Shown here piece by piece: positions 11,106 to 48,790 of a DNA stretch of 64,000 nt. Position numbers and translations under genes: made by a program. The stretch lies in NCBI GenBank assembly GCA_963663765.2, contig CAXXUA010000015.1:32001-96000 (forward strand), given 5' to 3'. The notes under the pieces are model-generated. The model saw only the letters and a list, made by a program, of their open reading frames with translations. It was not told where the DNA came from and made no database searches. This DNA is from Candidatus Poribacteria bacterium. Lineage in GTDB: Bacteria; Poribacteria; WGA-4E; WGA-3G. Position 1 is the stretch's first letter. Each line of letters begins with the position of its first letter.

Positions 11106-12593
11106 ATGGCAAAAAAACCAAACATCCTTTACATAATGACAGACCAACAGCGTTTTGACACTGTCGGTGCACTCGGAAATCCAATCATACAAACACCCGC
11201 ATTGGATAGAATTGTCCGTGAAGGAACAAGTTTTACCTCTGCATACTGTCCATCACCGGTCTGTGTTGCTTCCCGTTGCAGTTTCCTGCTAGGACAGTGG
11301 CCCCATCAAACGGGATGCACAACAAATTCTGCGATGCCGCAAGACCGAACTTCTGTTATGGATATGCTCAATGAAGACGGTTATCAAACACACGGTATCG
11401 GTAAAATGCACTTCACCCCACAAGGAAACAAATTGTGGGGATTTGAATCCAGAGATGTTTCAGAGGAAGGTTCTGGTAACAACGACTTTACGCAGTCACT
11501 ACGAGAAAACGGATATGACCATATTATCGCTCCCCACGGGGAACGAAGCGAATACTACTATATTCCACAACCTTCTCAACTCCCAGCAAGGTTACACCAT
11601 ACGCAATGGGTGGGTGATAAGACTTTGCAGTTCCTTTCACAACGCAATTCTGATAGACCTTTCCTGTGTTGGTCCAGCTTCATAAAACCGCATCCGCCGT
11701 TTGAATCACCTGTGCCATGGAACAGATTATACCGTACTGTAGAGATGCCGTTGCCATTCCTACCCCCAAACTATGAAGAACTGCACACACACTGGAATCG
11801 CCATCAGAATAGATACAAATACCGAGATCAAGGCATGGACATGAACCTTCTTCGGACAATGCGTGCAGCGTACTACGCAGCAATTTCGTATATAGATTAT
11901 CAGGTAGCACGCATGCTTGACTACCTTGAATCCGAAGGTGAGCTTGATAATACTCTGATACTATTCACTTCCGATCATGGGGAGCTGCTTGGAGACTATG
12001 ATTGCTACGGCAAACGTTCATACTTAGATGCTGCTGCCCGTATACCACTCCTTGTTCGGTATCCAGAAAGGTTTACTGCTAACAACCAGTGCGACACACC
12101 AACAAGTCTTGTGGATGTCCTCCCGACCTCTCTTGCTGCAGCAGGATTGACAACACCTTCAGATCGTTGCGGCACTGACCTTGCAGAAATCGGTTCAGGT
12201 AATGTAGAACGGGATGCAATTATCGGTCAGTTATCACAGGAAAGCAGAGGTTTATATGCGCTTATTACTAATGATTACAAATACACCTACTCCGCTGCTG
12301 ACCGAAAAGAGTGGCTATTCAGACGACTTGCCGGTAGACTTGATGAACGCAATCTTGCAGGCAACCCAGCTTATGGTAGAACGCTTAGAACCTATAGGGA
12401 TCGGTTAATTAGTTGGTTCCGTGAAGATGGTTATGACCTTCCTCTTGACGGAAATAGATGGCGTGAATTTCCACAACCCGTGGATAACGAAAATCCAGAT
12501 GCAGACCAACTTTTCCAAGATGGACGTTCTTCAACTGATCAATTTCCACCAGGATATTCGCCACATATCGATCCCATCAAAGGGCATACTTAA
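11106..12593 (+). CDS. sulfatase (formylglycine type)
   Basis: PNILYIMTDQQR, CVASR (CxxxR), GKMH, PHPP, SDHG. Confidence 0.92.
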   Translation: MAKKPNILYIMTDQQRFDTVGALGNPIIQTPALDRIVREGTSFTSAYCPSPVCVASRCSFLLGQWPHQTGCTTNSAMPQDRTSVMDMLNEDGYQTHGIGKMHFTPQGNKLWGFESRDVSEEGSGNNDFTQSLRENGYDHIIAPHGERSEYYYIPQPSQLPARLHHTQWVGDKTLQFLSQRNSDRPFLCWSSFIKPHPPFESPVPWNRLYRTVEMPLPFLPPNYEELHTHWNRHQNRYKYRDQGMDMNLLRTMRAAYYAAISYIDYQVARMLDYLESEGELDNTLILFTSDHGELLGDYDCYGKRSYLDAAARIPLLVRYPERFTANNQCDTPTSLVDVLPTSLAAAGLTTPSDRCGTDLAEIGSGNVERDAIIGQLSQESRGLYALITNDYKYTYSAADRKEWLFRRLAGRLDERNLAGNPAYGRTLRTYRDRLISWFREDGYDLPLDGNRWREFPQPVDNENPDADQLFQDGRSSTDQFPPGYSPHIDPIKGHT

Positions 12594-12599
12594 TAACTT

Positions 12600-12792
12600 C
12601 AGGACTTACGCAGTATTCTTGATTTAATCAAGAATTATGATGAAAATGATGCAATTATCAACATTTTTATGGGTTTCCGGCGCCAAATCAAGTAATCAAC
12701 GGTATGAATGCTATAAAGCGTTCCCCGGGTATGATTGCCTTTTGGCATTGCGCGCCTACAAAGCGCGCCTACCGTTGTGTGCGTAAGTCTTG
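12600..12792. mobile_element. family A MITE (CAGGACTTACGCA TIRs) with nested hairpin mini-elements
   Basis: TIRs caggacttacgca / tgcgtaagtcttg; flanks taactt / taacta. Confidence 0.8.
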
Positions 12793-12840
12793 TAACTAAT
12801 AATACTACTCCTCAATGTCAGGTTTAAACACTTTGTTGAT

Positions 12841-13923
12841 TTGAAATCAATCCATTCTTTTAATACAACTATTATTAATCCAGTAGTTCAACTTAGACAA
12901 CTACTCCGTGATCTATTGCCGTCGCTGCTTGCTATCTGCGGCTTTTTTCTTTTATGTGGCGTTGTATTGTATTGTAGTGGACGGAATCCTTTGGATTTTT
13001 ACACGACGATTTATATGAGTGGGTTCTCCAGTTTTGATGAATTTGGAGGCGTCCTGTTCTATGCAACTCCACTTATATTTACAGGACTTGCAGTTGCAAT
13101 TGGTTTCAATGGGGGTATGTTAAATATAGGTTGTGAAGGACAGTTAAATGTCGCTGCCTTTGCTGCTGCGTTGGTTGGTATACATATACAACTTCCCTTT
13201 ATGCTGTTAGTTCCTTTTTGCATTGTAGCTGCATTAGTTGCAGGTGGTACTTGGGGTGCGATTCCAGGATTACTGAAAGCGAAATTCGGTGCACATGAAG
13301 TTATCAATACGATAATGATGAACTTTATTGCAGCAATACTAACGAATTTCCTTATCACATCCATTTTTCAAGAACCTGGACAGATGAATCTGCAGACATC
13401 CCCGATTCAAGATACCAGTCGACTTCCACGTATATCTGGCGTATTGACCCTCCTGCCAGATGATAACTTGTTGAATGTCAGTTTCCTCCTTGCATGTGCC
13501 TGTGTGATAATTGTATACATATTTTTGAAGTGGACGCGTTGGGGATATGAACTCCGTTTAGTTGGTAAGGCACCAGAAGTAGCTGAATATGGAGGGATTA
13601 ATCCGCGTGTCGTGATTGTTTGGGTGATGTTGCTCAGCGGTGCAATTGCTGGATTAGCAGGTGTTGCAGATGTCATGGGATATAACTATAGATATGTATA
13701 TAGTTTCTCGTCGGGTTGGGGGTTCACGGGGATTGCTGTTGCACTATTGGGCAAAAATCATCCGTTTGGTGTATTTGCAGCTGCGCTCTTATTTGGTTTG
13801 CTTGATAAAGTAGCTTTGGATATTGAATTTCTGTTGGGAATACCTCGCGGTCTATTCTTAATCGGACAAGGATTACTAATTATTACATTGGTATGCCTTG
13901 AACGTCTATCTAAAAAAGTGTAG
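12841..13923 (+). CDS. ABC transporter permease (nucleoside/sugar type)
   Basis: LNIGCEGQ, HEVINTIMMNF, GFTGIAVALLG. Confidence 0.9.
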   Translation: MKSIHSFNTTIINPVVQLRQLLRDLLPSLLAICGFFLLCGVVLYCSGRNPLDFYTTIYMSGFSSFDEFGGVLFYATPLIFTGLAVAIGFNGGMLNIGCEGQLNVAAFAAALVGIHIQLPFMLLVPFCIVAALVAGGTWGAIPGLLKAKFGAHEVINTIMMNFIAAILTNFLITSIFQEPGQMNLQTSPIQDTSRLPRISGVLTLLPDDNLLNVSFLLACACVIIVYIFLKWTRWGYELRLVGKAPEVAEYGGINPRVVIVWVMLLSGAIAGLAGVADVMGYNYRYVYSFSSGWGFTGIAVALLGKNHPFGVFAAALLFGLLDKVALDIEFLLGIPRGLFLIGQGLLIITLVCLERLSKKV

Positions 13924-13925
13924 AT

Positions 13926-14768
13926 ATGATTTTACAATTATTATCAAGTACTTTACGAATGACAACGCCATTAGGTTATGCGGCGTTAGGTGGTATTTAT
14001 TCTGAAAGGTCAGGTATCATCAATATTGCTCTTGAAGGAATGATGCTGCTTGGTGCTTTTGGATTTGTTGTAGGTGCGCATGCGACTCAATCTGCGTGGA
14101 TTGGGCTATGTGTTGGTATCGGATTTGGTTTATTCATTGCTCTGATATTTGCTGTAGCGACAATATCCTTTCATGGTGAGCAGATTGTCACGGGGATAGC
14201 GATTAACCTTATAGCGTTAGGAGTCATCAAGTATGTCGTTCCAACGAACGAACGAGTATCTGGTTTGCCAGAAATAGGGTTGCCCTTTATAGGTTCATAT
14301 AGTATTCTCGTATATCTATTGCCTTTGTTAATGATAGTCAGCCATATATTGTTATTCAAAACACCATGGGGATTACGTTTACGTGCTGCTGGAGAATCTA
14401 CGGTAGCACTCAATACACTCAGTTTAAGTCGTCCAAAGTGGCAATATCTTGGATTAATTCTCAGTGGTATTCTTGCAAGTATAGGGGGTTGTTTCCTAAT
14501 TTCTGATAATCATTATTTTACTGAAAGGATTATTGGTGGCCGTGGTTATGTTGCGCTTGCAGCAGTGATCTTTGGGAATTGGAAACCTTATACATCTATA
14601 GCGGCGAGCCTTCTTTTTGGGTTCTCAATTGTTGTAGGTCTTGCAAATCAATGGAAAATACCAATCCAACTCATTGAAAGTGTGCCTTATGTATTAACTA
14701 TGGTTGTGTTGGCAGGTCTTGTGGGTAAGTCAAGTCCTCCGGCTGCTTTAGGTAAGATGGAATCCTAA
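13926..14768 (+). CDS. ABC transporter permease (nucleoside/sugar type)
   Basis: SERSGIINIALEGMML, GLRLRAAGE, GRGYVALAAVIFGNW. Confidence 0.9.
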   Translation: MILQLLSSTLRMTTPLGYAALGGIYSERSGIINIALEGMMLLGAFGFVVGAHATQSAWIGLCVGIGFGLFIALIFAVATISFHGEQIVTGIAINLIALGVIKYVVPTNERVSGLPEIGLPFIGSYSILVYLLPLLMIVSHILLFKTPWGLRLRAAGESTVALNTLSLSRPKWQYLGLILSGILASIGGCFLISDNHYFTERIIGGRGYVALAAVIFGNWKPYTSIAASLLFGFSIVVGLANQWKIPIQLIESVPYVLTMVVLAGLVGKSSPPAALGKMES

Positions 14769-14819
14769 TTTTGATTTCAGATAAGGATCTAATTGGATAC
14801 AAGAGTAATGTCTCAGCAA

Positions 14820-17201
14820 TTAACTTTGTTCATCTGTGAGTTCATAATAAGCGGAATGTCTGTTGTAATATCCATAGGATTTCGCGTATCTTGGATTTAT
14901 CATATTACACAACACACCAATGCCCTTTCCTGGTAGGACTTCCTTTAGGTGTTTTAATCCAGTTAGCAGATCGAATTTTTTGGTCTTGGTGATGTCAAAC
15001 ACATATATGACAGCGTCTGCGACAGTAGCCAAGATGACAGGATCTGCTACTGCACGTACTGGTGGGGAGTCAATGACAATAATATCGTATTCAGATTTAG
15101 CCTGTTCCAACCAATCTGTCATCATATCGGAATTTAGGAGTTCAATTGGGTTAGGTGGAATCGTTCCTCCTGGTACAAGGTGTAAATTTGCAATACCTGT
15201 TTGTCGGACAGTAGACATTAGGACATCATAACTATTCTCGGAGTTGATACTTATGAGAGCCTCACTCAGACCGGGTTTGCGCGGATCACTGTGCGTGATG
15301 TCAAAAGAATCGTGGGTACTATCGACATCGTCTTGGTCTGTTATTTGAAGGAGTTGCTCTGTTGGAAAAGCGGTGTGTTGTGTAGGTCTGCGCATATCTG
15401 CATCTATCAACAGCACTTTGTTACCTTTTTGTGCCAATGCAGCAGCAAGGTTGGATGAAACAGTGCTTTTTCCTTCACCACGGGTAGAACTCGTGACGAG
15501 TACAGTTTTTAATTCACTGTTAAGATTAAGGAATGGTAATTTTGCTACAAGTACGCGAAAAGCTTCAGATGATATAGAACTGGGCGCATCATTTACAATG
15601 AGCGGAATTCTGTAGGAACTACTTTTTTTGATAGATGGAATTACACCGAGAAAACTTGGTGGTTCTGGTAAGGAATCTAATTGTCGGACAGAATCCTCAA
15701 GTCGCAGATAAGTATCTTTGAAATAATTTTTTGCAACAGCAAAGGTCATTCCAAGTAAACCTCCGACCAACGCCCCTAAAACAAGATTTATTTTCATACG
15801 TGGTTTGATGGGTTCTTCAGGTATTCGAGCTTGATCTAATACTCTTAGACTGTCTGTTCTTGTTTCATTTATTATTTGGGATTCCTGTATTTTTTTTTCT
15901 AATTCTACGACTTGTGCGTTGTATAGTTCAACATCGCGCTTGAGTCTGTACATTTCCAATTGTTCATCCGACCACCCACCTAGTTTTGCGATTTCCTTGT
16001 TTATTTGAGCAGTAGTTTCCTTCTTTTGTTGTTGAAGACTATCAATAGCGGCTTGAGCTTCGTTTACCTTTTCTGATAATGCTTGGTGTAATGGATTAAA
16101 GGAGGATGTAGTACTTATAGTTTCTTTTTCCTCCTCTTTGAGTCGAGCTTCAGTTTCTTTTATTTTTTCAATTATAGATGTAATTTCAGGATGAGCAACA
16201 TCACCATATTTACCTATCAATGCTTTTTTCTCAATTTCATAGTCATTTAAATTATCTTGTAGCTTTGCATAATTAGGATTTCTTGATTTCGTTTCCGAGA
16301 TAAGGTTTTCTTCAATCTTGTTAAGTTCATCTTTATATGCCACGAGTCTCAATTGAGCGCCAACCAATTGACTTGCGATAGTATTTTCATTCAACTGAAG
16401 AGCGACAATGAGTTGTGCTAGTGTTCCACCTTCAGTGTTTAGGGTGAGTTCAGGATTTTTCAGCTGAAAATCGAAAAGATTTTTTTCAGCTTTCTCAAGG
16501 TTCTTTTTAGCGTCATTTAGCATGGTTTGTGGTAGAGGCTTCTCCCACCATTGCATTTTTTCAGCATCTTCAATTGCTACAGTATCTATAAGTACCATTG
16601 AAATTCTGTTACATAATAATTGGGCACGTTCCGAACTATGTTGTGTAATCTTGAGAGTAATTACGTTTCCATCCGTAGATTCTTCAATTTTCATATCTTC
16701 TTCAATCAATGTTTTAATGAAGAAGTCTTCCCACTCATCTATAGTTAGATCACCCTGTTCAGTTGCAGTATCGTCTACTTCAATATTGAATAGATTTGCT
16801 AACCAATTAGCTGTTTTGCTTCTGTAAGCAGGAAGTGGTTCAAGAAGTCCTTCTGCTCGAAGTTGGTGTACTGTGGGAGCAATCACTAAGTCGCGTGATT
16901 GTAGTATAGTTGCGTAAGTACTCAATGAAGTGTTAGAAAAAATTCCAGATAATGGTAGTTGCGAGAGCAGAGAGGAGGTTGGTTGTCCTTGAAGGATACG
17001 GATTGTTGTTTCTGATTGATATGTTGGTTGCGTAAAATCGGTTACAAGATAAGCTCCAACTATACAAAAAAAACAGATTGCAATAACACTCCATTTATTC
17101 CGATAAAGTATCCAAAAATAATCAGTAATTTTAATTTCAGTAATTTGTTCAAGTTGCTTATCGTCTTTTTCTGGCATTTTCTCCCTCATCATCGTATCCA
17201 C
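14820..17201 (-). CDS. wzc: Wzc-type polysaccharide co-polymerase / BY-kinase
   Basis: Two TM segments, coiled coil, Walker A GEGKS, IDADMRRP, IDSPP, C-terminal Tyr cluster YAKSYGYY...YY. Confidence 0.92.
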   Translation of the reverse strand: MDTMMREKMPEKDDKQLEQITEIKITDYFWILYRNKWSVIAICFFCIVGAYLVTDFTQPTYQSETTIRILQGQPTSSLLSQLPLSGIFSNTSLSTYATILQSRDLVIAPTVHQLRAEGLLEPLPAYRSKTANWLANLFNIEVDDTATEQGDLTIDEWEDFFIKTLIEEDMKIEESTDGNVITLKITQHSSERAQLLCNRISMVLIDTVAIEDAEKMQWWEKPLPQTMLNDAKKNLEKAEKNLFDFQLKNPELTLNTEGGTLAQLIVALQLNENTIASQLVGAQLRLVAYKDELNKIEENLISETKSRNPNYAKLQDNLNDYEIEKKALIGKYGDVAHPEITSIIEKIKETEARLKEEEKETISTTSSFNPLHQALSEKVNEAQAAIDSLQQQKKETTAQINKEIAKLGGWSDEQLEMYRLKRDVELYNAQVVELEKKIQESQIINETRTDSLRVLDQARIPEEPIKPRMKINLVLGALVGGLLGMTFAVAKNYFKDTYLRLEDSVRQLDSLPEPPSFLGVIPSIKKSSSYRIPLIVNDAPSSISSEAFRVLVAKLPFLNLNSELKTVLVTSSTRGEGKSTVSSNLAAALAQKGNKVLLIDADMRRPTQHTAFPTEQLLQITDQDDVDSTHDSFDITHSDPRKPGLSEALISINSENSYDVLMSTVRQTGIANLHLVPGGTIPPNPIELLNSDMMTDWLEQAKSEYDIIVIDSPPVRAVADPVILATVADAVIYVFDITKTKKFDLLTGLKHLKEVLPGKGIGVLCNMINPRYAKSYGYYNRHSAYYELTDEQS

Positions 17202-17222
17202 TAATCACGTTTTTTTAATAGT

Positions 17223-17380
17223 CAGGACTTACGCACCCAACGGTAGGCGGGGAATGCCTAAATGGCATTCATACCGTTGATTTGGTGCTTTGTAAGCGCG
17301 CTGGAAACCGAAAAAATGTTGAAAATTACACCATTTTCGCCATAATTCTTCATCAAATCATGAAAACTGCGTAAGTCCTG
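17223..17380. mobile_element. family A MITE between wza and wzc
   Basis: Perfect 13-bp TIRs, AATAGT direct repeats, 36-nt mini-element at 17249-17284. Confidence 0.85.
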
Positions 17381-17522
17381 AATAGTATAACATGAACATT
17401 GTAAAAGCTTTTGTAGAGCAAACTGTTAGTTTACGTTCCACAGATGTACAAACTAACAGTTTGTACATCTGTGGCTTACCTTGCTTAAGGGGTTTTAGTT
17501 TGCATAGATCTATTTTGTTTAT

Positions 17523-18704
17523 TTATCTGTATCTGAGCCAAACGGTTACGATTACATTTGTGAGTGAAGCGGCGAAACTCAACACACGCCAATCAATTCG
17601 TGTTCGTTCTAATATTCGTAGTTGATCGTTTGGGTGAAGGTATACTTCAGACTGTACTAGGTTGAAGTTTAGTTCTTCTTGTGTACCGTTTGCTCTGGTT
17701 AATATACATTTTTTTGAGTTTGCTTTTTCCTCGTCTAAACCGCCAGCCATTGCTACAGCATCTCTAAGGAGTGTTGGCTCGGTAATAACATATTGTGCGG
17801 GTTTATCTACTGCTCCGACCACACTAATTTTTGCTTCAGCAAGTGGAACATATAAAGTATCTCCTGGTGCTAAAGTTGCAGCTACATTTTCCGTAGTCAG
17901 GTCAACAGGAGTATTTTCATTATCAGTAATAATTTCTGAGTTCTTTAAATCTGCGAAATCTGATCTGGAACCTCCTGCGAGTTTTAATGCTTGATCAGCT
18001 GGTATCTGTTGGTTTGTAATCGGGTAAAAACCTGGAGTGACAACAGCCCCTATAACGCGAATTCTGCGCTGTTGATAAATTGATGGGACAATCACGACAT
18101 CGTAATTCTTCAATGGGAAATCAGTTTCGTTTGATTCAATTATATCTTGAAAATCAACAGTTTTTATAACCTTTCCATCTCGCAAGATAGCAATTTTGGA
18201 AAGGTCTGCAAGTTCATAGTTGATTCCCGCTGCAGCCAATGCTTGTACCAGATAAACTTGCCCAGTTTCAAAGACGTGTACATTTCCTCTGGCTTTCGGT
18301 TCAACAGCCCCGAATACCAAAATATATCGTTTTGGTTGCATGAGGGTAACAAAGACTCTTGCACTCGGTAGTTTTTTTGAAAACCCTTTTTGCATTTGTG
18401 CTTGTAGTTCAGAAATTGTCAAACCAGAAGCTTTTACAAGTCCAATTAGAGGATAGGAGATAAAACCGTCAAGTTGTAGCGGTACAGGGATACGGTCTTT
18501 AGTATATTCAGGAAAACCCTCTACAGTAACAACGATGCTGTCACCAACTTGCAATTTGTATGTAGAAGTTTCAGGATATTGGGGACTATCTGTAACAATG
18601 TTTTCGTTGGATGGTGGTTCTGCAAATATTGTAGATGTAATACTGAACTGACCCGTAAATATCAGGATAAGAAATAAAAAACGACAGTATGAAGTCAAGT
18701 GCAT
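17523..18704 (-). CDS. Wza-like polysaccharide export protein with SLBB domains
   Basis: YKLQVGD, DGFISYPLIG.VKASGLT, repeated V.GAV..PG.Y SLBB motifs. Confidence 0.88.
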   Translation of the reverse strand: MHLTSYCRFLFLILIFTGQFSITSTIFAEPPSNENIVTDSPQYPETSTYKLQVGDSIVVTVEGFPEYTKDRIPVPLQLDGFISYPLIGLVKASGLTISELQAQMQKGFSKKLPSARVFVTLMQPKRYILVFGAVEPKARGNVHVFETGQVYLVQALAAAGINYELADLSKIAILRDGKVIKTVDFQDIIESNETDFPLKNYDVVIVPSIYQQRRIRVIGAVVTPGFYPITNQQIPADQALKLAGGSRSDFADLKNSEIITDNENTPVDLTTENVAATLAPGDTLYVPLAEAKISVVGAVDKPAQYVITEPTLLRDAVAMAGGLDEEKANSKKCILTRANGTQEELNFNLVQSEVYLHPNDQLRILERTRIDWRVLSFAASLTNVIVTVWLRYR

Positions 18705-19198
18705 TTATTTATTGTTGCCTTTTAAGTGGATTCTTCTTACAAATCTTTTGATTAATTTAGTGTTTTGATGTTTTTGAATTATATATTCTTCATAAATTCT
18801 TGTGAATTTGTTTTATGTATTTTAGCAGGTATATGGATAGAATTCAAGTGAAAAGGTGTGGACAGAGTTATTCAGATTTACCCATTATTCACATATTTGT
18901 TCGTTTTTTGTGTAGATAAAATAGAATTTTGCACTTGATTTGTCGCTATTACGAATTCTGCAAAACTGAACACGTGGTCTGAAATAACATACCGTGGTAT
19001 TTTATAAAAATTGGTTTTTAAACCAGTCGTAGTAAGGTATGAAAGCGTTTTTTCTAATACGTAATATTTTTTTGTAAGTTTCTTGTATGTCTGTTTTTTT
19101 ACTGGTGTCGTTGCTTTTTTGTATTGCTCTTTTTTATGAGAGGAATCACTGCAAATTGTTTGTGCGTTTCTTGAGATTTCCTATGAATATGCTACTAT

Positions 19199-19226
19199 TA
19201 AAACCGTACCGTACGGTACGGTTTTA
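19199..19226. promoter_or_regulatory. 28-bp perfect palindrome, putative protein-binding site
   Basis: TAAAACCGTACCGTACGGTACGGTTTTA is its own reverse complement. Confidence 0.5.
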
Positions 19227-19417
19227 CCGGTTTGAGGTGCGGTTTTGAAAACATGGAATGCGTCCAGTATCTATAAGGATTTATCGGGGTTTTTGTTGTG
19301 TTTTTTTGCTAAATTAATTTCATTTTTTGGTGCGGTTATTTTTGTGATATTTTGAGTATGGGTGTTGGTTTTGCATAGTGTTTTTTTGTATGCTTTTCTT
19401 TATGTATATATTATAAA

Positions 19418-19600
19418 CAGGACTTACGCACCGAACGGTAGGCGGAGAATGCCTAAAGGCGAATGCGCGTATGGCATTCGCCATGATTCATACCGTTGAT
19501 TTGGTGCTTTGTAAGCGCGCTGGAAACCTAAAAAATGCTGAAAATATCATCATTTTTCGTCGTAATTCTTGACTAAAACATGAAAACTGCGTAAGTCCTG
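19418..19600. mobile_element. family A MITE with doubly nested hairpin inserts
   Basis: TIRs caggacttacgca / tgcgtaagtcctg. Confidence 0.8.
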
Positions 19601-19873
19601 ATATATGATCTTTTATGGGTTTTGTAGTTTTTTGGGTGTCTGTTTATTGGGATATCCAATAGATTAGCAATAGATATCCATTGGGTTTTGGTTAGTAGTA
19701 TTTTTTTGAGGATTTTCAATACAAGAAATCATCGGGATGTATGCCAAAATGCATTCCCGTATGGTATTCCTCGGATTACGTGGAGTGCACGGAGTGTGTA
19801 CGGAATCGCAGATTACGCTGAGATGATACCTGCATGAAGACGTATGGCATAAATGATGGTTTGTCTAATCAAT

Positions 19874-20028
19874 CAGGACTTACGCACCCAACGGTAGGCG
19901 TGCTTTGTAGGCGGGGAATGCCAAAAGGCATTCATACCGTTGATTTGGCGCTGGAAACAGAAAATGCTGAAAATTACACCATTTTCGTCATAATTCTTCA
20001 TCAAATCATGAAAACTTCGTAAGTCCTG
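19874..20028. mobile_element. family A MITE
   Basis: TIRs, TCAAT direct repeats, mini-element at second internal site 19913-19947. Confidence 0.85.
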
Positions 20029-20139
20029 TCAATTATACCAAAATAACGGAAATCATCTTATTTTTATGGTTGCTGGTGTCGTTAGGAAACCGAACCTACC
20101 GCCGTGTATAAGTAATTATGGATTTTAGTATAAACACAA

Positions 20140-20345
20140 GCGCATTCCTGATTAACTCTCAGACATCTTTTGGGTTGCCATCTAATTCGCCATTGTTATG
20201 ACCTAAAAATTCTTGAACGGTATTACCATTTATTGTTCCAGCATCAAATGACCAATACTAACAACGCCATCTTTATTGAATTGGGATTCTGAGTATTGAC
20301 AGAAATAACACTATAAACTGAGTATGAAAATAACAACAAAACAGA
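20140..20345 (-). pseudogene. degraded N-terminal fragment of a LamG paralog
   Basis: 20171-20272 aligns to 20991-21093 of the neighbouring LamG gene with mostly third-position changes and a 1-nt deletion. Confidence 0.7.
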
Positions 20346-20387
20346 TCGTTGAATGCTTAATTATTCCTCTTGTTCCTAAGACACAAT

Positions 20388-21179
20388 TTAGAATGATGCT
20401 TTTATTTTTCCCCAACTTGTAGTCAGTTTGTCTTTAGGCTGAACTGGAAGTCCTTCTGCAGTGTATAGTTGCATGACTTCGTTTTCGGTAAGAGCTCGAT
20501 CATAAATGACTACTTCATCAATCAGACCTATGAAACCCCCATCACTTGCTTTTCCGATTACAGTTTCTATACCCTCTGACTGCATTGGTCCGTTGTAATC
20601 GATATCGTTTTCTAATTTACCATCTGCATAGAGGTACTTCTTGTTTCCATCAACGATAGCGACAATATGGTGCCATTCATTTTTAGCAAAGAATGCTATT
20701 CCAAATCCGCTATCACCTTGCCAACTTGGCATTGTAATAAATTCGTACTCTTGACCAGCGTTTCGACCGTCAAAACGTAATGCCCAACTATTCAAATCCC
20801 TTTGTGCGACAATGTTCCCACAACACCCAGCAACAACACCTATGACTGGACTATCTTCTGCTGCATTGACCCAAGCTGCGACAGTCATCTCTTCAGCCCC
20901 GTTGAAATCAAGTGTATCAGTTCCTGGTATTATTACGAAGTTCTCACCATTGAATTCAAGAGCTTTGTCTACTTTACCTGTTACAACATTAGGATTTCCA
21001 TTCAATTCTCCATTGTTTTGACCTATAACGTCTTGAACGGTATTTCCATTTATTGTTCCAGAATCAAAAGGCCAATACCCAACAACTCCATCTGTAGGGA
21101 ATTGTGCGATTACAACCGGTGCGAATAGTATAAAATAAAAGATGCCAAATGTCGTGTTTAATATATTTTTTCTTGACAT
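20388..21179 (-). CDS. secreted LamG/concanavalin-like domain protein
   Basis: Signal peptide, YWPFD, ALEFNG, WHHIV, GLIDEVVIYDRAL, C-terminal VQPKDKLTTSWGKIK; likely start MSRKN. Confidence 0.9.
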   Translation of the reverse strand: MSRKNILNTTFGIFYFILFAPVVIAQFPTDGVVGYWPFDSGTINGNTVQDVIGQNNGELNGNPNVVTGKVDKALEFNGENFVIIPGTDTLDFNGAEEMTVAAWVNAAEDSPVIGVVAGCCGNIVAQRDLNSWALRFDGRNAGQEYEFITMPSWQGDSGFGIAFFAKNEWHHIVAIVDGNKKYLYADGKLENDIDYNGPMQSEGIETVIGKASDGGFIGLIDEVVIYDRALTENEVMQLYTAEGLPVQPKDKLTTSWGKIKASF

Positions 21180-21291
21180 AGATTTATCTCCTAATTTGAT
21201 GATAGTTTCATTCGTAGTTTGCGTATTAATCAACCTTCGGGTGGTTTTATGATTATACTATGGTTAGGTTTATGTGTCAATCATTTTATCC

Positions 21292-21979
21292 GGGTGTGTA
21301 AAGTGTTTGCACAGAGGTACTAACTTTTGTTCTCTTTAGTCCCGTAGGGACGCAATGTTTATAGAATGACGTTATCACATCCTCTCTCTTTAGTTCCGTA
21401 GGAACGATAGAGAAGGATAAACATATCGTCCCTACCAAATCAACGCCAAATGCGCCAAATCAACGGCATGAATGCCATTAAGGCATTCCCCGTATGGCAT
21501 TTGTCAGGACTAAAAAGACGTGGGGATATGTATTTCTATAAACATATCGTCCCTACGGGACTGAAGAATATGGTTAATATTAACAATATTTCTTTATATT
21601 GACACTTAATGAAGTTGACAATCAAAATCGGTAGTTGTATTCGTAGGGGTTGGGTTCCCCTACCCGTTTGGTTTTTGAGTTTGCGTAGATCATGTGTGGA
21701 AACAACGCCCCTACGAATACACAACTTGAACGTCAAAACTCATTAGGTCTCTCTGTGTCCGCAATCTCTCATTTAATCAGTTGCGGCGGGGCACAGAGAC
21801 CCGGGGAATGCCTAAAGAAGCATGCGCGTATGGCATGCTCCATGATTCATACCCGGGGAATGCCAAAAGGCATTCATACCCGGGGAATGCCAAGAGGCAT
21901 TCATACCGTTGATTTCTTGATTTCTTGATTTCGCCCTACAATGGAGAGTGGGATGTTTGTGCAAAAACTTTACACACCC
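21292..21979. mobile_element. non-autonomous composite MITE with ISKra4-like TIRs (copy 1)
   Basis: GGGTGTGTAAAG ... CTTTACACACCC ends match the IS at 56335; interior highly similar to 36084-36698; no TSD seen. Confidence 0.85.
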
Positions 21980-22056
21980 TGTTAAGTAAAATATGTTGAC
22001 AAATTTCCATATATTCACTAAAATAATCCCAATCTTTAGCAACATGGAGACAACCA

Positions 22057-22911
22057 ATGGAAAGAATACCGATTGTTGATACGCATGTTCATCTATGGCA
22101 TCCTAAACACCTGAGATATCCTTGGCTGAAGCAGGTTCCTGCGTTAAATAGACGTTATCTATTGAAAGACTATGGTGCTGCAACGGAGAATATAGAAGTA
22201 ACATCTTTTGTTTTTGTGCAATGTGACACACATCCTGATGATGGTTTGAAAGAGACTGACTGGGTTACATCACTTGCAGGAGTAGAACCGCGCCTTCGTG
22301 GTATCGTAGCCTGGGCACCGCTTGAAGAAGGACCGCGAGTCGCAGCATTTGTTGAGAAACTTGCTGAGGAAAAACTTGTGAAAGGTATCCGTCGGCTTGT
22401 TCAAGGTGAAAGTGTTGATTTCTGCATACAACCCAAGTTTGTAGAAGGTGTTAAAACGCTTGCAAAATATGGTTTGAGTTTTGATATCTGTATCTTTCAC
22501 CCACAACTTGCAAATGCGATACAACTTGTTGAGCAGTGTCCACATGTTCAATTTATCTTAGATCATATTGCAAAACCAGACATCAAGAACCAACTATTTG
22601 AGCCGTGGAAGCAAGAGATAAAGACACTTGCTGCTTTTCCAAATGTTTTCTGCAAAATATCTGGATTAGTGACAGAAGCAGACCATGAGTCGTGGACGCC
22701 AAGTGATTTACAGCCATATATTGAGCATGTTATAGATTGTTTTGGATTTAGCCGTGTCGTTTATGGTAGTGATTGGCCAGTGTGCACGCTTTCCTCTGAT
22801 TATTCACGTTGGGTGCAGACCTTGTATGATGCTGTTGAAGGCTGTTCATCTGAAGAAAAAAACAATCTTTTTTACGATAATGCTGTCAAGTTCTATAGAC
22901 TTGTAAAGTGA
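22057..22911 (+). CDS. amidohydrolase family protein (sugar lactonase-like)
   Basis: DTHVHLW, KGIRR, LDHIAKP, CKISG, GSDWPV. Confidence 0.88.
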   Translation: MERIPIVDTHVHLWHPKHLRYPWLKQVPALNRRYLLKDYGAATENIEVTSFVFVQCDTHPDDGLKETDWVTSLAGVEPRLRGIVAWAPLEEGPRVAAFVEKLAEEKLVKGIRRLVQGESVDFCIQPKFVEGVKTLAKYGLSFDICIFHPQLANAIQLVEQCPHVQFILDHIAKPDIKNQLFEPWKQEIKTLAAFPNVFCKISGLVTEADHESWTPSDLQPYIEHVIDCFGFSRVVYGSDWPVCTLSSDYSRWVQTLYDAVEGCSSEEKNNLFYDNAVKFYRLVK

Positions 22912-22940
22912 AATGTGTTTGAAGGACATCTGTAAAATTA

Positions 22941-23984
22941 TTAACGGCTAATGCGTACACTACCCGCTTGCATTGCTTTCTCTGCTTCTGCGGCAGTTGC
23001 CCAATTAAAGTCTCCTGGGAAAGTATGTGCCAACGCTGAATAACCTCCTGCAAAGTCAACTGCTTCTTGAGGAGTTTTCCCATTCAGTAGGCTATAGATT
23101 AGACCCGATGAAAAACTGTCTCCACCTCCAACTCTATCCACCAGTTCTAAGTTTTCATATATTCGAGAAAGGTAGAAGTTTTTACCGTCATAGAGGAGCG
23201 TGCGCCAATCATTTAGCCATCCGGTTTTGGCGTCACGAAGCGTGGTACCGATCATCTCAATGTTAGGAAATGCTTCTTTGACGCGTTGTGCAACTTCTTT
23301 ATAGCTTTCAGGTTCCAGTTTACTATATGATTCAGTTGTACCTTCAGCAGCAAATCCAAGAGATTTCTCAAAGTCTTCTTCATTTCCAATGAGAACTGAA
23401 ACGTGTTTCATCATTGGTCTGTTTATAACTTGAGCTTGTTCTGCAGTCCACAATTTGGAGCGGAAGTTAAGATCATAACTCGTTTTGAGACCAGCATCCT
23501 TGGCGGCTTGTAGTGCTTCAGCTGAAACAGCAGCTGCAGATTCTGATAATGCAGGCGTTATTCCACTCAGATGAAACCAGCGTGCATTAGCAAAAATGGA
23601 TGACCAATCAATTTCACCGGGTTGAACATTTGAGATTGCGGAATGTCCTCTGTCGTAGGTGACACTACTTGCACGAGGACCGGCACCCATTTCCAGATGA
23701 TAGAACCCATTTCTTTCAAAACCGACTCCGTCAAAATCAACCCAAACGATGTTGGACATATCTACTCCTAATTCCTGTCCCTTGTTTCGGATGTATTTTC
23801 CGGACCAATTATCAACGAGACGTGATACCCACGCAGTTTTTAAACCGAGTTGCGCAGCGTTGACTGCTACGTTCATCTCGGCACCACCTGCGGTAATTGC
23901 AAGTGATGAGACCTGCTCTAAACGCATGAATTCTGGTGCGGTGAGTCGGATCATTGCTTCCCCAAATGTAACTAAGTCATACAT
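22941..23984 (-). CDS. kdgK: PfkB sugar kinase, 2-dehydro-3-deoxygluconokinase-like
   Basis: FGEAMIRL, GGAEMNVA, DLNFRSKLW, DRVGGGDSF. Confidence 0.8.
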   Translation of the reverse strand: MYDLVTFGEAMIRLTAPEFMRLEQVSSLAITAGGAEMNVAVNAAQLGLKTAWVSRLVDNWSGKYIRNKGQELGVDMSNIVWVDFDGVGFERNGFYHLEMGAGPRASSVTYDRGHSAISNVQPGEIDWSSIFANARWFHLSGITPALSESAAAVSAEALQAAKDAGLKTSYDLNFRSKLWTAEQAQVINRPMMKHVSVLIGNEEDFEKSLGFAAEGTTESYSKLEPESYKEVAQRVKEAFPNIEMIGTTLRDAKTGWLNDWRTLLYDGKNFYLSRIYENLELVDRVGGGDSFSSGLIYSLLNGKTPQEAVDFAGGYSALAHTFPGDFNWATAAEAEKAMQAGSVRISR

Positions 23985-23988
23985 GTAA

Positions 23989-24252
23989 TTACTCTCCTGA
24001 TGAAATACTCATTATACTATTATATTCTTCTTGTAGTTCTTTGATACAATTTCCACAAAAACAGTAGATTTTACCGTAGGTACCAATCTCTTTTTCTACC
24101 AATTGGTTTAGTGGAAAATCATCTTGACAAATTGCACATACCTCTATGGGTTCGGTAGGATTTTCTTTATCGTCCTTTTTTTCTCTTGCATTGTAGAGCA
24201 ATATCAAAAAAACTAATGTTGGTAAGATAAAAATAAAAAAGATGAAATGCAT
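23989..24252 (-). CDS. small membrane-anchored protein with putative Zn finger
   Basis: N-terminal TM helix, CAIC ... CGNC. Confidence 0.6.
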   Translation of the reverse strand: MHFIFFIFILPTLVFLILLYNAREKKDDKENPTEPIEVCAICQDDFPLNQLVEKEIGTYGKIYCFCGNCIKELQEEYNSIMSISSGE

Positions 24253-24332
24253 AGCATATTCCCTATTTTAAAAAAGTGCATCTTGCTTTGTGTACTATAG
24301 TTGATAACGATGAATGTGTCAACGGAATTTGT

Positions 24333-24733
24333 CAGGGTTATTCAGTTTTAAGAATCTATCGTTATTCCAGTTAACTTTGGGTTAAAATTAGTGAATATAT
24401 AGGGATTTTTGATGTATTCTTTATTATTGTCAGAACCAGGATTTTCAAATCAAGAAATCAACGGTATGATTGCTATATAGCATTCCCCGGGTATGAATGC
24501 CGTATGGCATTCCCCGGGATTAGAAGACTATCAAGATTTCTTTCATCAAATCCTATTCCAAAAGAGGCATAAACGCATATAAAAAACCCTTGACGAGGTA
24601 AATCCTGAAAATCTACTAATCTTGAAAATCCTGGTTCAGACAAAGCATGAGTTAACTCCACAAAAATTAACTAATTTAAGGATTAACGACTGTGGTAGAA
24701 TTTACAAAATAAATTGAAATCTAAATAACACTA
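24333..24733. mobile_element. family B MITE (CAGGGTTATTCAGTTTT TIR)
   Basis: 9-bp TSD GGAATTTGT on both sides; interior similar to 53454-53966. Confidence 0.85.
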
Positions 24734-24838
24734 GGAATTTGTAGCGAGAATAGCATAATTTTGCTAAAATGTGGGTGTTAAGAGATTCATTCTAAACAGT
24801 TCCTGCAAGAATATGGAACAGTAGAAGGAAAATATGTT

Positions 24839-25966
24839 ATGAGCAAAATAGCACATGTGGATGTATATCCGATATCCATTGGTATGAAGGACAAATTTAC
24901 GATTGGAACCGGTTTTGTTGGAGATGCGGATTCTGCGGGTGACCATGTTTTTGTAAAAATTACAACAGATGACGGGTTCGTTGGATGGGGAGAACAACGT
25001 GCGCTCCCATCATGGAGTTACGAGACTACAGAATCTATAACATCTACGATTCGAAATTATATTACACCTCTTCTGTTCGGCAAAAATCCAATAAACCGAA
25101 ATGCAATTCACACTGCAATGTATCAAACATTAAAACCAGCAGTGAGTAATGGACATCCCTTTGCAAAGGCAGCTGTGAATATTGCATTGTGTGACATAAG
25201 CGGACAAATTCTGGGTGTACCTATTCATGTGCTTTTTGGGGGGAAGCGACACGATACGCTTCCACTCAGTTATGCGTTAAGTATTGATACACCTGAAATA
25301 ATGGCGTTGAAAGCTAAAGCGTTAGCACCTTGTACCTGTTTCAAGGTGAAAGTAGCAGGTGTGCCATCAGTAGATGAAGACCGAATACGTGCAATTCATG
25401 AAGCTGCACCCAATGCTAAACTTTGGATTGATGCGAATCAATCTTACACACCATCAAATGCGTTAGACTTACTTCATCGTGTGAAAGATATTGATACCAT
25501 CTACTGTATGGAACAACCGGTTGCAAGCCAAGATTGGTTTGGAATGAAACGTGTTAAAGAATCATCACCGATTCCAATTGCAATTGATGAAGGTTGTTTT
25601 AGCCATTATGATCTTGGTAAAATTGCACGTCTTGAATCTGCGGATGCTGTTGTCCTGAAGTTATGTAAGTCTGGTGGTCTAACAGAATGCCTGAGGAGTG
25701 TCAATGTTGCAGCAGCAAATGCGATTGAACTCTTAGGTAGTGGTTTAACTGAGGCGGGTGTAGGTTTCATCGCAAGTGTACATCTCTTTTCTACTATTGA
25801 TTTGGTGTTACCAGCAGAACTAAACGCACCTGTGTTCTTAGACAATATGGTTGTAGATGGTATAGAGATTAATGAGCATGAAGTAACAGTTCCAGATGCA
25901 CCTGGACTTGGGATTACTGTAGATGAAGAATATATCAAAGCGAATTTGTTGAAATACGATGTTTAG
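24839..25966 (+). CDS. mandelate racemase/muconate cycloisomerase (enolase superfamily)
   Basis: GWGE, FKVKV, IDAN, MEQP, IDEG, LKLCKSGG, PGLG. Confidence 0.88.
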   Translation: MSKIAHVDVYPISIGMKDKFTIGTGFVGDADSAGDHVFVKITTDDGFVGWGEQRALPSWSYETTESITSTIRNYITPLLFGKNPINRNAIHTAMYQTLKPAVSNGHPFAKAAVNIALCDISGQILGVPIHVLFGGKRHDTLPLSYALSIDTPEIMALKAKALAPCTCFKVKVAGVPSVDEDRIRAIHEAAPNAKLWIDANQSYTPSNALDLLHRVKDIDTIYCMEQPVASQDWFGMKRVKESSPIPIAIDEGCFSHYDLGKIARLESADAVVLKLCKSGGLTECLRSVNVAAANAIELLGSGLTEAGVGFIASVHLFSTIDLVLPAELNAPVFLDNMVVDGIEINEHEVTVPDAPGLGITVDEEYIKANLLKYDV

Positions 25967-27119
25967 CAGCGAGAACGAGTTGCGCGACCATAACAGTGAA
26001 GAACATTACTGCACACAGGAGATATGGGCTTTGCAGTCCCCAACCAATATCTGTAGAAATACCACCGAACAATGGACCTACCAGAATTCCTAACCCTAAT
26101 ACTGCTTCGTGCCAACCGCTTTTGTTTCCTTTATCAGTATGTCTGTGTAAACCGTAGTAAAGACTACTAAAATAGGTGACGGCTGCGGATAATCCGATAG
26201 TTGCAAAAGCACATATCCAGAGGATTGTATGTTGAAATTTCCATATTCCGAGGAAACTGAGCATTGCCAGAGTTTGTACAATAAGGATTGGACGCAATCG
26301 GTAATGCCATCGTGTGCAGAATCCGGATCCAAGACCAAGAAACGCAAAAGTTTGTACACCTCCAAGTGCAAGCATATAATTACCGTATATTTTGGGTGAT
26401 ATATTCATTTCCAGAATTAATTTCGGTGAGAGTCTGCGTAATATCCCTAAACCGAACCAGGAAGCAAAATTAGCACATCGTGCAATGTTGAGATGGAGAG
26501 ATCTTACTTCGGGAGTTGGGAAGAGTATTTCAACATTCTCACTATGTGCTTCAGTGGTTAGTAATTTCTTTTCAGTTTTATGAAAAGACAGCAATGCGAT
26601 TGTGTACACACTAAGAATAGCGGATATATGAAACGGTCTAAATGGGTTTTCATCATGGTATAGATAGCTTGATAGCGATGGACCTAAAGTTACACCGATG
26701 CTCCAAAACAGATTGAAGAGTGTTACACGTTGTATAAGTTTGCTTTCGCTTTCCTGTTCAGACAACCATGCTTCATAGGCGGGCCAAAAGAGTGCGAGAG
26801 AAACACCTAATATAGGGAAAGTAAGTAATAGAGAGATTTTACTTTTGCAAAATGGAAGCAAGAGACTTACTCCAGCTAAAACAACGCATGCAGTGTATAA
26901 CATACGTCGCCGGTCAACTCGATCCGATAGTTTTCCACATGGGATTGCAAGACATGTAAAACTTGCTGTAGCCATCGCCATCAAGACACCGACAAAGGTT
27001 GATGTAAGTTTTAGGTGATTACTATAAAATGATGAGTTGGTGAATACACTACTTAGGGCAAGATCTATGAGTAGGACAGGTAAGTAAACGGTGATTAAGT
27101 GTGTCGGTCTTATGTGCAT
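25935..27119 (-). CDS. MFS transporter
   Basis: About 12 TM segments, GKLSDRVDRR motif A. Confidence 0.85.
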   Translation of the reverse strand: MHIRPTHLITVYLPVLLIDLALSSVFTNSSFYSNHLKLTSTFVGVLMAMATASFTCLAIPCGKLSDRVDRRRMLYTACVVLAGVSLLLPFCKSKISLLLTFPILGVSLALFWPAYEAWLSEQESESKLIQRVTLFNLFWSIGVTLGPSLSSYLYHDENPFRPFHISAILSVYTIALLSFHKTEKKLLTTEAHSENVEILFPTPEVRSLHLNIARCANFASWFGLGILRRLSPKLILEMNISPKIYGNYMLALGGVQTFAFLGLGSGFCTRWHYRLRPILIVQTLAMLSFLGIWKFQHTILWICAFATIGLSAAVTYFSSLYYGLHRHTDKGNKSGWHEAVLGLGILVGPLFGGISTDIGWGLQSPYLLCAVMFFTVMVAQLVLAAKHRISTNSL

Positions 27120-36083: not shown

Positions 36084-36698
36084 GGGTGCGTAAAGTTTTT
36101 GCACAGAGGTACTAACTTTTGTTCTCTTTAGTCCCGTAGGGACGCAATGTTTATAGAAAGACGTTATCACATCCCCTCTCTTTAGTTCCGTAGGAACGGC
36201 ATAGAAGGATAAACATATCGTCCCTACCAAATCAACGCCAAATGCGCGTATGGCATTTGTCGGGACTAAAAAGACGTGGGGATATGTATTTCTATAAACA
36301 TATCGTCCCTACGGGACTGAAGAATATGGTTAATATTAACAATATTTCTTTATATTGACACCTAATGAAGTTTGACCATCAAAATCGGTAGTTGTATTCG
36401 TAGGGGTTGGGTTCCCCAACCCGTTTGTTTCTTGAGTTTGCGTAGATCATTTGGGGAAACCACGCCGCGACGAATACACAACTTGAACGTCAAAACTCAT
36501 TAGGACTCTGTGTCCACAATCTCTCATTTAATCAGTTGCGGCGGGGCGCAGAGACTCGGGGAATGCCTAAAGAAGCATGCGCGTATGGCATGCTCCATGA
36601 TTCATACCCGGGGAATGCCAAAAGGCATTCATACCTTTGATTTCTTGATTTCGCCCTACAATGGAGAGTGGGATGTTGTGCAAAAACTTTACACACCC
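36084..36698. mobile_element. non-autonomous composite MITE with ISKra4-like TIRs (copy 2)
   Basis: GGGTGCGTAAAGTTTTTGCAC ... GTGCAAAAACTTTACACACCC; 9-bp TSD ATCAGTAGT. Confidence 0.9.
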
Positions 36699-37792: not shown

Positions 37793-38067
37793 CAGGACTT
37801 TCGCAGTTATCTTGATTTAATCAAGATATGTGATGAAAATGATGTAATTATCAGCATTTTTATGGGTTTTCAGAACGCTTTCAAAGCACCAAATCAAGAA
37901 ATCAACGGTATGAATGCCTTTTGACATTCCCCGGGTATGAATGCCTTTTGACATTCCCCGGGTATGAATGCCTTTTGACATTCCCCGGGTATGAATGCCT
38001 TTTGACATTCCCCGGGTATGAATGCCTTTTAGGCATTCACCGCCTACCGTTTCTGCGAAAAATCTTG
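37793..38067. mobile_element. family A MITE with five tandem 27-nt hairpin units
   Basis: Degenerate TIRs; gggtatgaatgccttttgacattcccc tandem units at ~37908-38041. Confidence 0.8.
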
Positions 38068-44339: not shown

Positions 44340-44521
44340 CAGGACTTACGTAAAAACGGTAGGTGGTGAATGCCTAAATGGTATTCATACCGTTGGTTTC
44401 TTAATTTCTTGATTTCTTGATTTGGTGCTTTGTAAGCGCGCTGGAAACCCTTAATAATGTTGATAATTACATCATTTTCATCACAATTCTTGATTAAATC
44501 AAGTAAACTGCGTAAGTCCTG
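44340..44521. mobile_element. family A MITE
   Basis: TIRs; TTACA TSD. Confidence 0.85.
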
Positions 44522-48621: not shown

Positions 48622-48790
48622 TAGGACTTACGCACCCAACGGTAGGCGGGGAATGCCTAAATGCGAATGCGCGTATGGCATTCGCCATGATTCATACCGT
48701 TGATTTGGCGCAGGAAACCGAAAAAATGCTGAAAATTACCCCATTTTCGTCATAATTCTTCATCAAATCATGAAAACTGCGTAAGTCCTG
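48622..48790. mobile_element. family A MITE
   Basis: TIRs; TTAAG TSD; nested hairpin insert. Confidence 0.85.

Follow-up and report, generated by a model that had tools for sequence, protein, structure and literature searches.

Small repeats without genes of their own are common in bacteria, and how they move is mostly unknown. In plants, MITEs (miniature transposable elements with inverted repeats) of the Tourist and Stowaway type nest within their own copies, and the nesting order gives their relative age; such elements are bounded by terminal inverted repeats, are flanked by target-site duplications and belong to known transposase superfamilies. Derivatives of the bacterial insertion sequences IS200/IS605 make no target duplication, carry a hairpin near their end beside a fixed short sequence and insert immediately 3' of a favoured base or sequence, and they give tandem or nested copies if the target is recreated. 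The small dispersed repeats SDR1-8 of Nostoc punctiforme and its relatives, described by Elhai et al. in 2008, are reportedly hairpin-forming units of 20-30 nt with units nested within units. SDRs are stated in a citing paper to occur only in Nostocaceae (PMC5861425); citing papers portray them as very small mobile repeat modules, of which SDR5 was inserted between the third and fourth bases of HIP1 (PMC4390886, PMC5861425). Repetitive extragenic palindromic (REP) elements and REPINs are, according to Bertels & Rainey 2011 and Di Nocera et al. 2013, short extragenic hairpins mobilised by RAYT (Y1 HUH) transposases (PMC3116915, PMC3733652). Here we describe a repeat module found in 64,000 nt of DNA from a Candidatus Poribacteria bacterium (GCA_963663765.2, contig CAXXUA010000015.1, positions 32,001-96,000, forward strand; this whole stretch is called the window, and positions refer to it unless a contig handle precedes them). 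Its basic unit appears to be a non-coding module of ~35 nt made of a hairpin with a 7-bp stem and fixed flanks (GGGGAATGCC-loop-GGCATTCATACC), followed by a G at the junction and by TTGATTT as the tail. We consider it probable, whichever agent is at work, that whole units entered one after another at the joint between the hairpin and the tail of a resident module and that slippage followed.

The array at 21803-21931 (plus strand) consists of three hairpin units and then three tails of 8 nt, as seen both by direct reading and in the tokenised genome described below. The outermost hairpin (21803-21853) is a long form of 51 nt in which the short-form arms GGGGAATGCC...ATTCATACC hold a second hairpin within the loop. 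A C at 21854 separates it from the middle hairpin (21855-21880, 26 nt, GGGGAATGCC-AAAA-GGCATTCATACC; direct reading, pattern match and tokens), and a second C at 21881 separates this from the innermost hairpin (21882-21907, 26 nt, loop AAGA). The innermost tail GTTGATTT (21908-21915) is followed by a second tail CTTGATTT (21916-21923) and by the outermost tail CTTGATTT (21924-21931). A previous sequence-only reading of the window had seen three 27-nt hairpin units and three tails here; the counts are as it claimed, but the first unit is the 51-nt variant. A sister array at 36558-36651 (plus strand) lies in a paralogous copy of the host repeat and is one level shallower: long hairpin, C, short hairpin, TTTGATTT and CTTGATTT. 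The flanks of the two are alike and the sole difference block amounts to 35 nt, CGGGG...CATACCGTTGATTT, i.e. C-hairpin-GTTGATTT. The sister copies therefore differ by one hairpin plus one tail, as had been noticed, and both parts, the innermost hairpin with its innermost tail, are in a single block; the base directly after it, the first base of the second tail, is C in 21803 and T in 36558. Because it is absent from the sister copy, the innermost hairpin is presumably the newest. The array is carried by a composite host repeat region (21300-21980, plus strand) with paralogues of 80-89% identity in the same genome, which also holds a module at 21457-21491 (minus strand); in comparison with these copies, the empty forms of the host site (ctx6) read ...GAGAC-CCC/CT-GCCCTACAATGG. 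The whole 680-nt composite block 21300-21980 is present at four places in the genome, its own included, with 85-89% identity, and arrays are therefore also copied passively in larger blocks.

The short hairpin was searched for with up to 2+2 arm mismatches, which gave 642 units genome-wide. The genome was then tokenised on the basis of BLAST into short hairpins (B), the long form (L; about 60 near-full-length copies), the hairpin of family A, which is related to the short hairpins and has the same tail, and tails (T). The tokens grouped into 646 complexes, 496 of which are simple runs of hairpins followed by tails, and hairpin count equalled tail count in 353 of the 496 (71%). The 375 one-hairpin arrays had 0, 1, 2, 3, 4 or 6 tails in 18, 267, 70, 12, 7 and 1 cases, respectively; for the 103 two-hairpin arrays, 0 to 5 tails were found in 1, 5, 81, 10, 5 and 1. 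Restricted to one or two hairpins and one or two tails, the table reads 267/70/5/81 and the odds ratio is 62. Counts are strongly associated at depths one and two and weakly at depth three, and the association is one-sided; the genome-wide correlation that the sequence-only reading proposed is thus real in the equal counts, whereas the departures from it (given below) are not symmetric. Strings in which tandem and nested units occur together were balanced in 10 of 21 cases, counted by hand. Tandem arrays of ~ten whole modules (hairpin-tail-hairpin-tail) were also seen, with G and not C between a tail and the next hairpin; two long ones (9-10 modules) sit in REPIN or other contexts, and on contig C6 one 100-kb bin (300-400 kb) has 46 units on one strand.

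The arrays follow a common grammar, (C-hairpin)n, G, TTGATTT, (C-TTGATTT)m-1, and then usually G. The spacer between adjacent hairpins is C in 115 of 124 pairs, and in 64 of 65 where two hairpins are followed by two tails (BBTT). The first tail is G-initial in 237 of 241 single modules, and the tail initials are G, C in 63 of 65 arrays with one hairpin and two tails. The BBTT arrays have G and then C in 61 of 65, which bears out the junction-base rule suggested beforehand, with G at the inner tail and C at outer ones. Since the second tail is C-initial, simple slippage of GTTGATTT-G is insufficient to explain the arrays, as had likewise been argued for the sister copies. Indeed, it is extremely improbable that the 27-nt and 8-nt tandem repeats slipped independently and that their matching counts are a coincidence or a matter of ascertainment. 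Runs of identical hairpins (37891-38041 and a seven-hairpin array), tail runs of up to 6 and the tandem module arrays of ~ten units speak for such slippage, but besides the second tail, which it cannot produce, it is at odds with the strong count association, with the absence of hairpin excess in other species, with adjacent hairpins that differ in 80 of 92 pairs of balanced arrays and with subtypes that are linked in mirror order. When single and double forms are compared, the longest common prefix and suffix fall short by exactly the junction base; therefore, the junction G is replaced by C-unit-C. The clean target ATACC^GTTG that had been proposed is for this reason not upheld. The further idea of a complement rule at the junction fits the nested site (G to C) and, if the unit is written C-hairpin-G-tail, the three common primary sites (C to G), but it fails in four rarer contexts. 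Worked through by hand, models with a one-base target duplication, staggered CpG cuts or P-nucleotide-type additions did not yield both the primary (C..G G) and the nested (C..C) joints, and integration of a circle at G^TT would give tandem, not nested, arrays.

If each unit had entered a resident module, the outer hairpin would be the resident one. Loop types of single modules were compared with those of double arrays by host context. Single modules have mostly CTTAATG in the family A loop (ctx2; 35/50), CTAAATG at a first REP site (ctx1; 51/65) and CATACGC at the TGCAGGC site (ctx1c; 28/34). The outer hairpin of double arrays keeps the type of its context in 9/10 (ctx2), 13/18 (ctx1) and, at a second site in the same REP hairpin (ctx1b), 11/11, and the inner hairpins are mostly of other types, CAAAAG, CATAAG or TTTATA (CAAAAG in 7/10 and 7/18). 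Close paralogues were defined by 70+70-nt flanks aligned at ≥93% over ≥125 nt, and 225 pairs qualified. Eleven double arrays have a close paralogue with a single module, and the hairpin of the single corresponds to the outer one in 7 cases and to the inner one in 0, with a tie in 4; in three of the four ties both hairpins are identical. Furthermore, the compensated stem subtype GAATACC..GGTATTC is linked with the tail variant TTGATTA, which is rare in single modules (2/241). Where this subtype is innermost, TTGATTA is found as first tail of 10 of 14 arrays, versus 11 of 160 otherwise (Fisher 5e-8), and in two arrays, one BBBTTT and one BBBBTTT after collapsing two identical units, a middle hairpin of the subtype goes with a middle TTGATTA tail. 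In the seven-hairpin array TTGATTA is again the middle tail, but there the GAATACC subtype fills all positions save the outermost. The mirror-order linkage is what a stack predicts, each hairpin being paired with its own tail at mirrored depth. Outer residents, mirror-order linkage and the 35-nt difference between the sister copies together support the earlier suggestion that nesting depth records successive insertions.

The same data bear on the notion that a few founder arrays spread passively with copies of host MITEs and REPs, or as blocks, and that equal counts reflect common descent. The host repeats are multi-copy, arrays of the same state cluster by host family, junction bases are uniform and some outer/inner pairs recur (TTAAT/AAAA 7 times), all of which such descent would produce. 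Double arrays are found, however, in at least 8 host contexts and at a similar ratio to singles; outer hairpins track the host context and inner ones do not; near-identical host paralogues are single in one copy and double in the other with an identical outer hairpin; and outer/inner loop combinations are diverse, the commonest pair accounting for 7 of 65. We therefore regard founder arrays as very unlikely to explain the pattern. Whole-array descent and independent slippage are minor contributors and not explanations.

Under successive entry, later replication slippage among the tandem 27-nt hairpins or the 8-nt tails would alter the counts, with loss or duplication of hairpins as the commoner change; the tail run would therefore be the more faithful record of depth, with tails equal to or in excess of hairpins. 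Hairpin-excess arrays are mostly runs of identical units, up to a seven-hairpin array with six identical, and adjacent hairpins are identical in 14 of 36 pairs there versus 12 of 92 in balanced arrays. This agrees with slippage having been called on for the array at 37891-38041. In tail-excess arrays a hairpin was probably lost by slippage between tandem 27-nt units and its tail left as a footprint, and some of these arrays keep a TTGATTA tail without the matching hairpin type. The surviving hairpin is mostly of the resident type, which the loss of hairpins does not fully explain.

Within the window, the hairpin pattern had 13 matches versus 0 in 100 shuffles, and the tail word STTGATTT had 48 matches versus 11.2 ± 3.3 by chance. 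Arrays of two levels are located at 12685-12753 (minus strand; two hairpins and two tails, the inner tail being the variant GTTGATTA), 24447-24515 (minus strand), 53659-53728 (plus strand, at a GGTAGGC^G REP site) and 60077-60147 (plus strand, in a GGTAGGAGCGACC REPIN-like loop). Single modules are found at 17249-17283 (plus strand, site GGTAGGC^GTGC) and at 19913-19946 (plus strand), the latter in the second site of the same REP as that of 17249 (TGTAGGC^GCGC). Reading of these loci confirmed the one-to-one and two-to-two counts given for them earlier, including the sister array at 36558, and likewise the two exceptions that had been named: five hairpins, four of them identical, with two tails at 37891-38041 (minus strand), which we read as slippage on top of a two-level array, and one hairpin with four tails, two of them degenerate, at 44365-44423 (plus strand), a tail-excess array. 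Five further modules with one hairpin and one tail, which were absent from the earlier list, start at 19444, 19726 (minus strand), 21457 (minus strand), 36229 (minus strand; family A) and 48648.

The hosts of the module were read directly as REP/REPIN-like hairpins with a GTAG tag and as MITE-like repeats (host tags GGTAGGCGYGC..., GGTAGGAGCGACC...; cf. PMC3733652). They had been taken for MITEs before, which applies to some of them, but most are REP/REPIN-like. Filled copies were compared with empty paralogues of the same host repeats. The first REP site, ACGGTAGG-C^G-TGCTTTGTA, was empty in 127 copies and contained one module in 35 and a double array in 11; the respective numbers were 175, 12 and 7 for the second site in the same REP hairpin and 61, 37 and 9 for the loop of the family A hairpin. 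At all three sites filled copies show a clean addition of 35 nt between C and G, and no target duplication was seen in any filled/empty pair compared. The 5' neighbour of single modules is C in 224 of 241, with no longer word in common. At the second REP site, GCTTTGTA-AGC^GCGC, about 47 filled copies have TAGGC in 36 and TAAGC in 5 cases, and about 315 empty copies have TAGGC in 1 and TAAGC in 295; this association could result from target choice, from co-transfer of flanks or from descent. The A-to-G change at this site makes a GTAG word beside the entry point.

We infer that the module is mobile and is served by some agent. In the model we favour, modules would be copied into many places, with primary sites directly 3' of a C, in or beside small hairpins, the hosts being GTAG-tagged REP/REPIN-like repeats and the loop of the family A hairpin. 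The hairpin/tail junction of a resident module would be a further favoured site, and each entry would wedge a new hairpin, together with the tail that belongs to it, between the hairpin and the tail already there. The resulting array would be (C-hairpin)n G TTGATTT (C-TTGATTT)n-1, in which the last unit to arrive lies innermost. Our leading candidate for the agent, although we place it somewhat below an even chance, is an enzyme that acts in trans and catalyses a single-strand event guided by the hairpin; exact ends in many unrelated contexts, the conserved stem and the clean additions at three sites argue for it. The source genome has four near-identical IS200/IS605-type tnpA copies (C5:688634, C3:287718, C5:550867, C5:353059), three of which precede an identical, putatively tnpB-like frame (by appearance), the fourth having different downstream DNA; the four have one left-end hairpin in common, which bears no relation to the module. 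Another Y1 transposase gene, RAYT-like (C4:621661-621987, 252-aa frame, E 4e-10 to PF01797), sits amid arrays of GTAGG-tagged REPs, of the family that provides one of the module's host sites, and is not flanked by the module. Within 900 nt of the Y1 genes, neither the hairpin nor the tail motif was present at five of six matches, the sixth, a partial match at a contig end, being left out. No Rfam family matched in 12000-26000.

As an agent, enzyme-free templated copying from existing copies with co-transfer of short flanks is possible too, at a likelihood that we put distinctly short of even. That the same nested architecture arose without a dedicated enzyme, by repair guided by homology or microhomology or by template switching at hairpins, in a gene-conversion-like "homing", seems rather unlikely to us. 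A few donor flank bases would then be co-copied, and the C...C nested form would have arisen once or a few times and been re-copied via homology of the hairpin 3' arm and the tail. Such copying accords with the uniform C...C junction at nested sites, with the C found 5' of the hairpin even where all empty copies have T or AG, with left flanks ...ACC-C, ...TCC-C or ...GTAGG-C that resemble donors, and with the REP family ...CTGTAGG-AGC-GATCTCC, whose left joint is constant and whose right joint has one base different in another species. The near confinement of the GAATACC-type hairpin with TTGATTA tail to nested sites, the excess of TAGGC in filled copies of the second REP site and the failure to find either an enzyme or a full-length element point the same way. 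The unit ends are exact, however (GGGG at the start, TTGATTT at the end), in more than 10 unrelated contexts here and in many more elsewhere, and switching driven by microhomology is not expected to give such exact ends. Donor-like flanks are not evident for 73 complexes outside the nine recognised host classes, the 35-nt additions at three abundant sites are clean and leave the flanks unchanged, and the flank associations may also arise through choice of target or through descent along with the host repeat. Taken in its full form, the proposal that we return to here is that the 35-nt module, which would rank with the smallest mobile DNA units, enters its own copies at the single-base joint where hairpin meets tail and leaves a last-in-innermost record in which tails outlive collapsed hairpins, and that entry rewrites the joint base from G to C on both sides by a joining chemistry or copying route not known from bacterial transposons, carried out by an enzyme or a hairpin repair pathway in Poribacteria. 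As a whole this remains tentative, and we hold it to be doubtful in all its parts together.

A number of observations weigh against successive homing of a mobilised module. Tail excess occurs in 108 and hairpin excess in 35 of the 496 simple arrays, and at three or more levels the counts match poorly: three hairpins go with 2 tails in 6 arrays and with 3 in 4, the rest having 0, 4 or 5 tails (one array each). Copies spread with the host repeats and are not independent events, so that the p-value of the count association overstates it. Of 140 two-tail arrays in five other species, no more than 55 contain a junction between two hairpins; with the tail bases in these genomes (see below) this means that two hairpins imply at least two tails, and that two tails often occur without two hairpins. 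The tail excess requires frequent loss of hairpins or addition of tails alone. The lower divergence of inner units that the sequence-only reading had expected is not seen: measured from whichever of the 12 commonest variants is nearest, inner units lie at a distance of 0.42 and outer units at 0.46 (p 0.72), and the cruder count of mismatches to the majority arms has the opposite sign (inner 0.95, outer 0.54), the higher inner value being due to the compensated stem subfamily as a confounder. The step from C-H-G-t-G to C-H-C-H-G-t-C-t-G (H, hairpin; t, tail) is impossible by one clean insertion, since the G must become C, and the product predicted by the primary-site rule, with no C between the hairpins, is found in 1 of 124 junctions. 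A trans-acting enzyme as the agent does not account for the replacement of G by C at the nested joint. In four rarer contexts the filled flanks are unlike any empty copy (TCC to C..GC, AGC to C..C, TG to C..G, CT or CCC to CC..C), and the net gain there is 33-35 nt without a constant value. No inverted pairs of module ends at a recurrent distance, which would mark a full-length parent element, exist in the genome, and no enzyme for the module was found among its IS200/IS605 and RAYT-like genes. Four public sequencing runs, among them a sponge metagenome, contain the window, all as contigs. These population contigs are broken at the repeats and show no polymorphic site: they end at every repeat (12645/12760, 17251/17355, 19444/19987, 21325/21953, 24362/24612) and none bridges an array. 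Contigs of other samples join 21802 to 21932 at multi-copy depth, and this joint most likely stems from empty paralogues. In G016, the nearest species (flanking gene 87-89% identical), intergenic DNA could not be aligned with the array locus, and orthologues therefore give no polarity.

The stem is kept in the genome as a structure, with the 7-bp pairing maintained in 90-99% of units at each position and with double changes that preserve it (G-C to A-T in 27 units, C-G to T-A in 37). In single-strand fold predictions the hairpins form and the tails are unpaired, and the stems of inner units are predicted to be lengthened because a CCCGGG palindrome arises from the junction C. Where an array has at least three hairpin units, this amounts in the fold to a 6-bp extension of the inner hairpins (junction e.g. 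at 21850-21858). The 51-nt forms show a second kind of nesting, an inverted family-A-like hairpin in the loop (21803-21853, 36558-36608, 19444-19494 and 48648-48698); the corresponding minus-strand matches lie at 21818-21841, 36573-36596, 19459-19482 and 48663-48686. Rare, fully palindromic versions (C4:719080, C4:107367, C5:581182, C4:1165446) have an inverted tail and a GGTATGAAT arm in place of the GGGG arm (AAATCAAC-GGTATGAATGCC...GGCATTCATACC-GTTGATTT), and some of them have runs of inverted tails on the left. Their outer words may resemble the inverse-core and core sites of integron attC.

In a scan of one genome per species, an exact 18-mer over the hairpin/tail joint hit records titled Candidatus or uncultured Poribacteria in 77 of 80 cases among the matches listed (at least 88 stretches). 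A Nostoc-type cyanobacterium as the source, to which the likeness to SDRs and MITE ends had pointed at first, is rejected on these matches. Genomes of the same genus carry the module family, and many Poribacteria records have it in many further contexts. The copy number of the joint 18-mer is as low as 1 junction in G003 and as high as 300 in G017, two species of one genus. In five other genomes, adjoining hairpins of which the inner one is canonical and has a first tail were followed by C-TTGATTT in 9 cases and by another base in 0. Two-tail joints with a hairpin-hairpin junction 26-27 nt upstream, paired by hand from the listed coordinates, made up 21/31 in G017, 17/68 in G016, 9/11 in G014, 3/8 in G005 and 5/22 in G002. 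Relative to the direction of the neighbouring gene, modules of the source genome (G000) are in the same orientation in 98 and in the opposite one in 98 cases. Among the matches listed, G017 appeared to have a near-pure strand switch, but the complete list of one subtype, with 44 copies forward and 44 reverse and the strands mixed along the chromosome, ruled this out. In G005 the forward:reverse ratio is 18:6 up to 2.05 Mb and 6:21 beyond, the split having been chosen after seeing the data, and in G000 orientation correlates with GC skew at rho -0.34 (44 bins, p 0.02). The regional orientation bias is weak and inconsistent between genomes.

If nested entry is correct, the architecture would hold an internal clock and a polarity, outer units being old, inner ones new and each hairpin accompanied by its own tail, so that the order of events could be read from sequence alone. 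It would also constrain the mechanism by exact ends, entry 3' of C beside hairpins, the lack of a duplication and the rewritten junction base. The module is abundant in uncultivated sponge symbionts (roughly 500 modules in the source genome; 300 junctions in a closed genome related to it), and strain-resolved metagenomes could therefore catch events in progress. Should the copying be enzyme-free, it would clearly exemplify how repeats can spread through repair at hairpins.

Compared with the known systems, the module is like plant MITEs a small non-autonomous element that would insert into its own copies, but its ends are unrelated to each other and it has neither terminal inverted repeats nor a target-site duplication nor a known transposase superfamily nor a recurrent full-length element. 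Like IS200/IS605 derivatives it shows no target duplication, and its 5' neighbour is mostly C, with no longer common word and with altered flanks in four contexts; it differs in having one hairpin per unit, a single-C target and a replaced junction base, and the local IS ends are unrelated to it. REP/REPIN elements also occur as hundreds of short extragenic hairpins with compensatory changes, and the single-strand hairpin is probably the substrate in both. The module C-GGGGAATGCC...GGCATTCATACC-G, in contrast, has no GTAG or CGTC tag and forms no inverted doublets; it is a passenger inside REPs, and the RAYT-like gene of the genome is flanked by GTAGG REPs instead. A search of the literature on Poribacteria repeats found nothing relevant, which does not show that nothing has been published. 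The closest analogue, compared by description only, is the SDRs of Nostoc. Both are very small, hairpin-forming, non-coding dispersed repeats without a known enzyme, and the precise insertion of SDRs at fixed positions of other short repeats has its counterpart in the three clean sites and the one nested junction of the module. The phylum is different, with the module in Poribacteria and SDRs in Nostocaceae. Going by the descriptions in citing papers, the module further differs in that it consists of two parts, a hairpin and an 8-nt tail, and that its preferred secondary site is its own hairpin/tail junction, from which follow the architecture of a hairpin run and a tail run and the change of C for G at the junction. 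What is new here, and sets the module apart from SDRs as they are described by others, is the two-part unit, the probable homing to its own joint, the mirrored record of hairpin run and tail run and the rewritten junction base.

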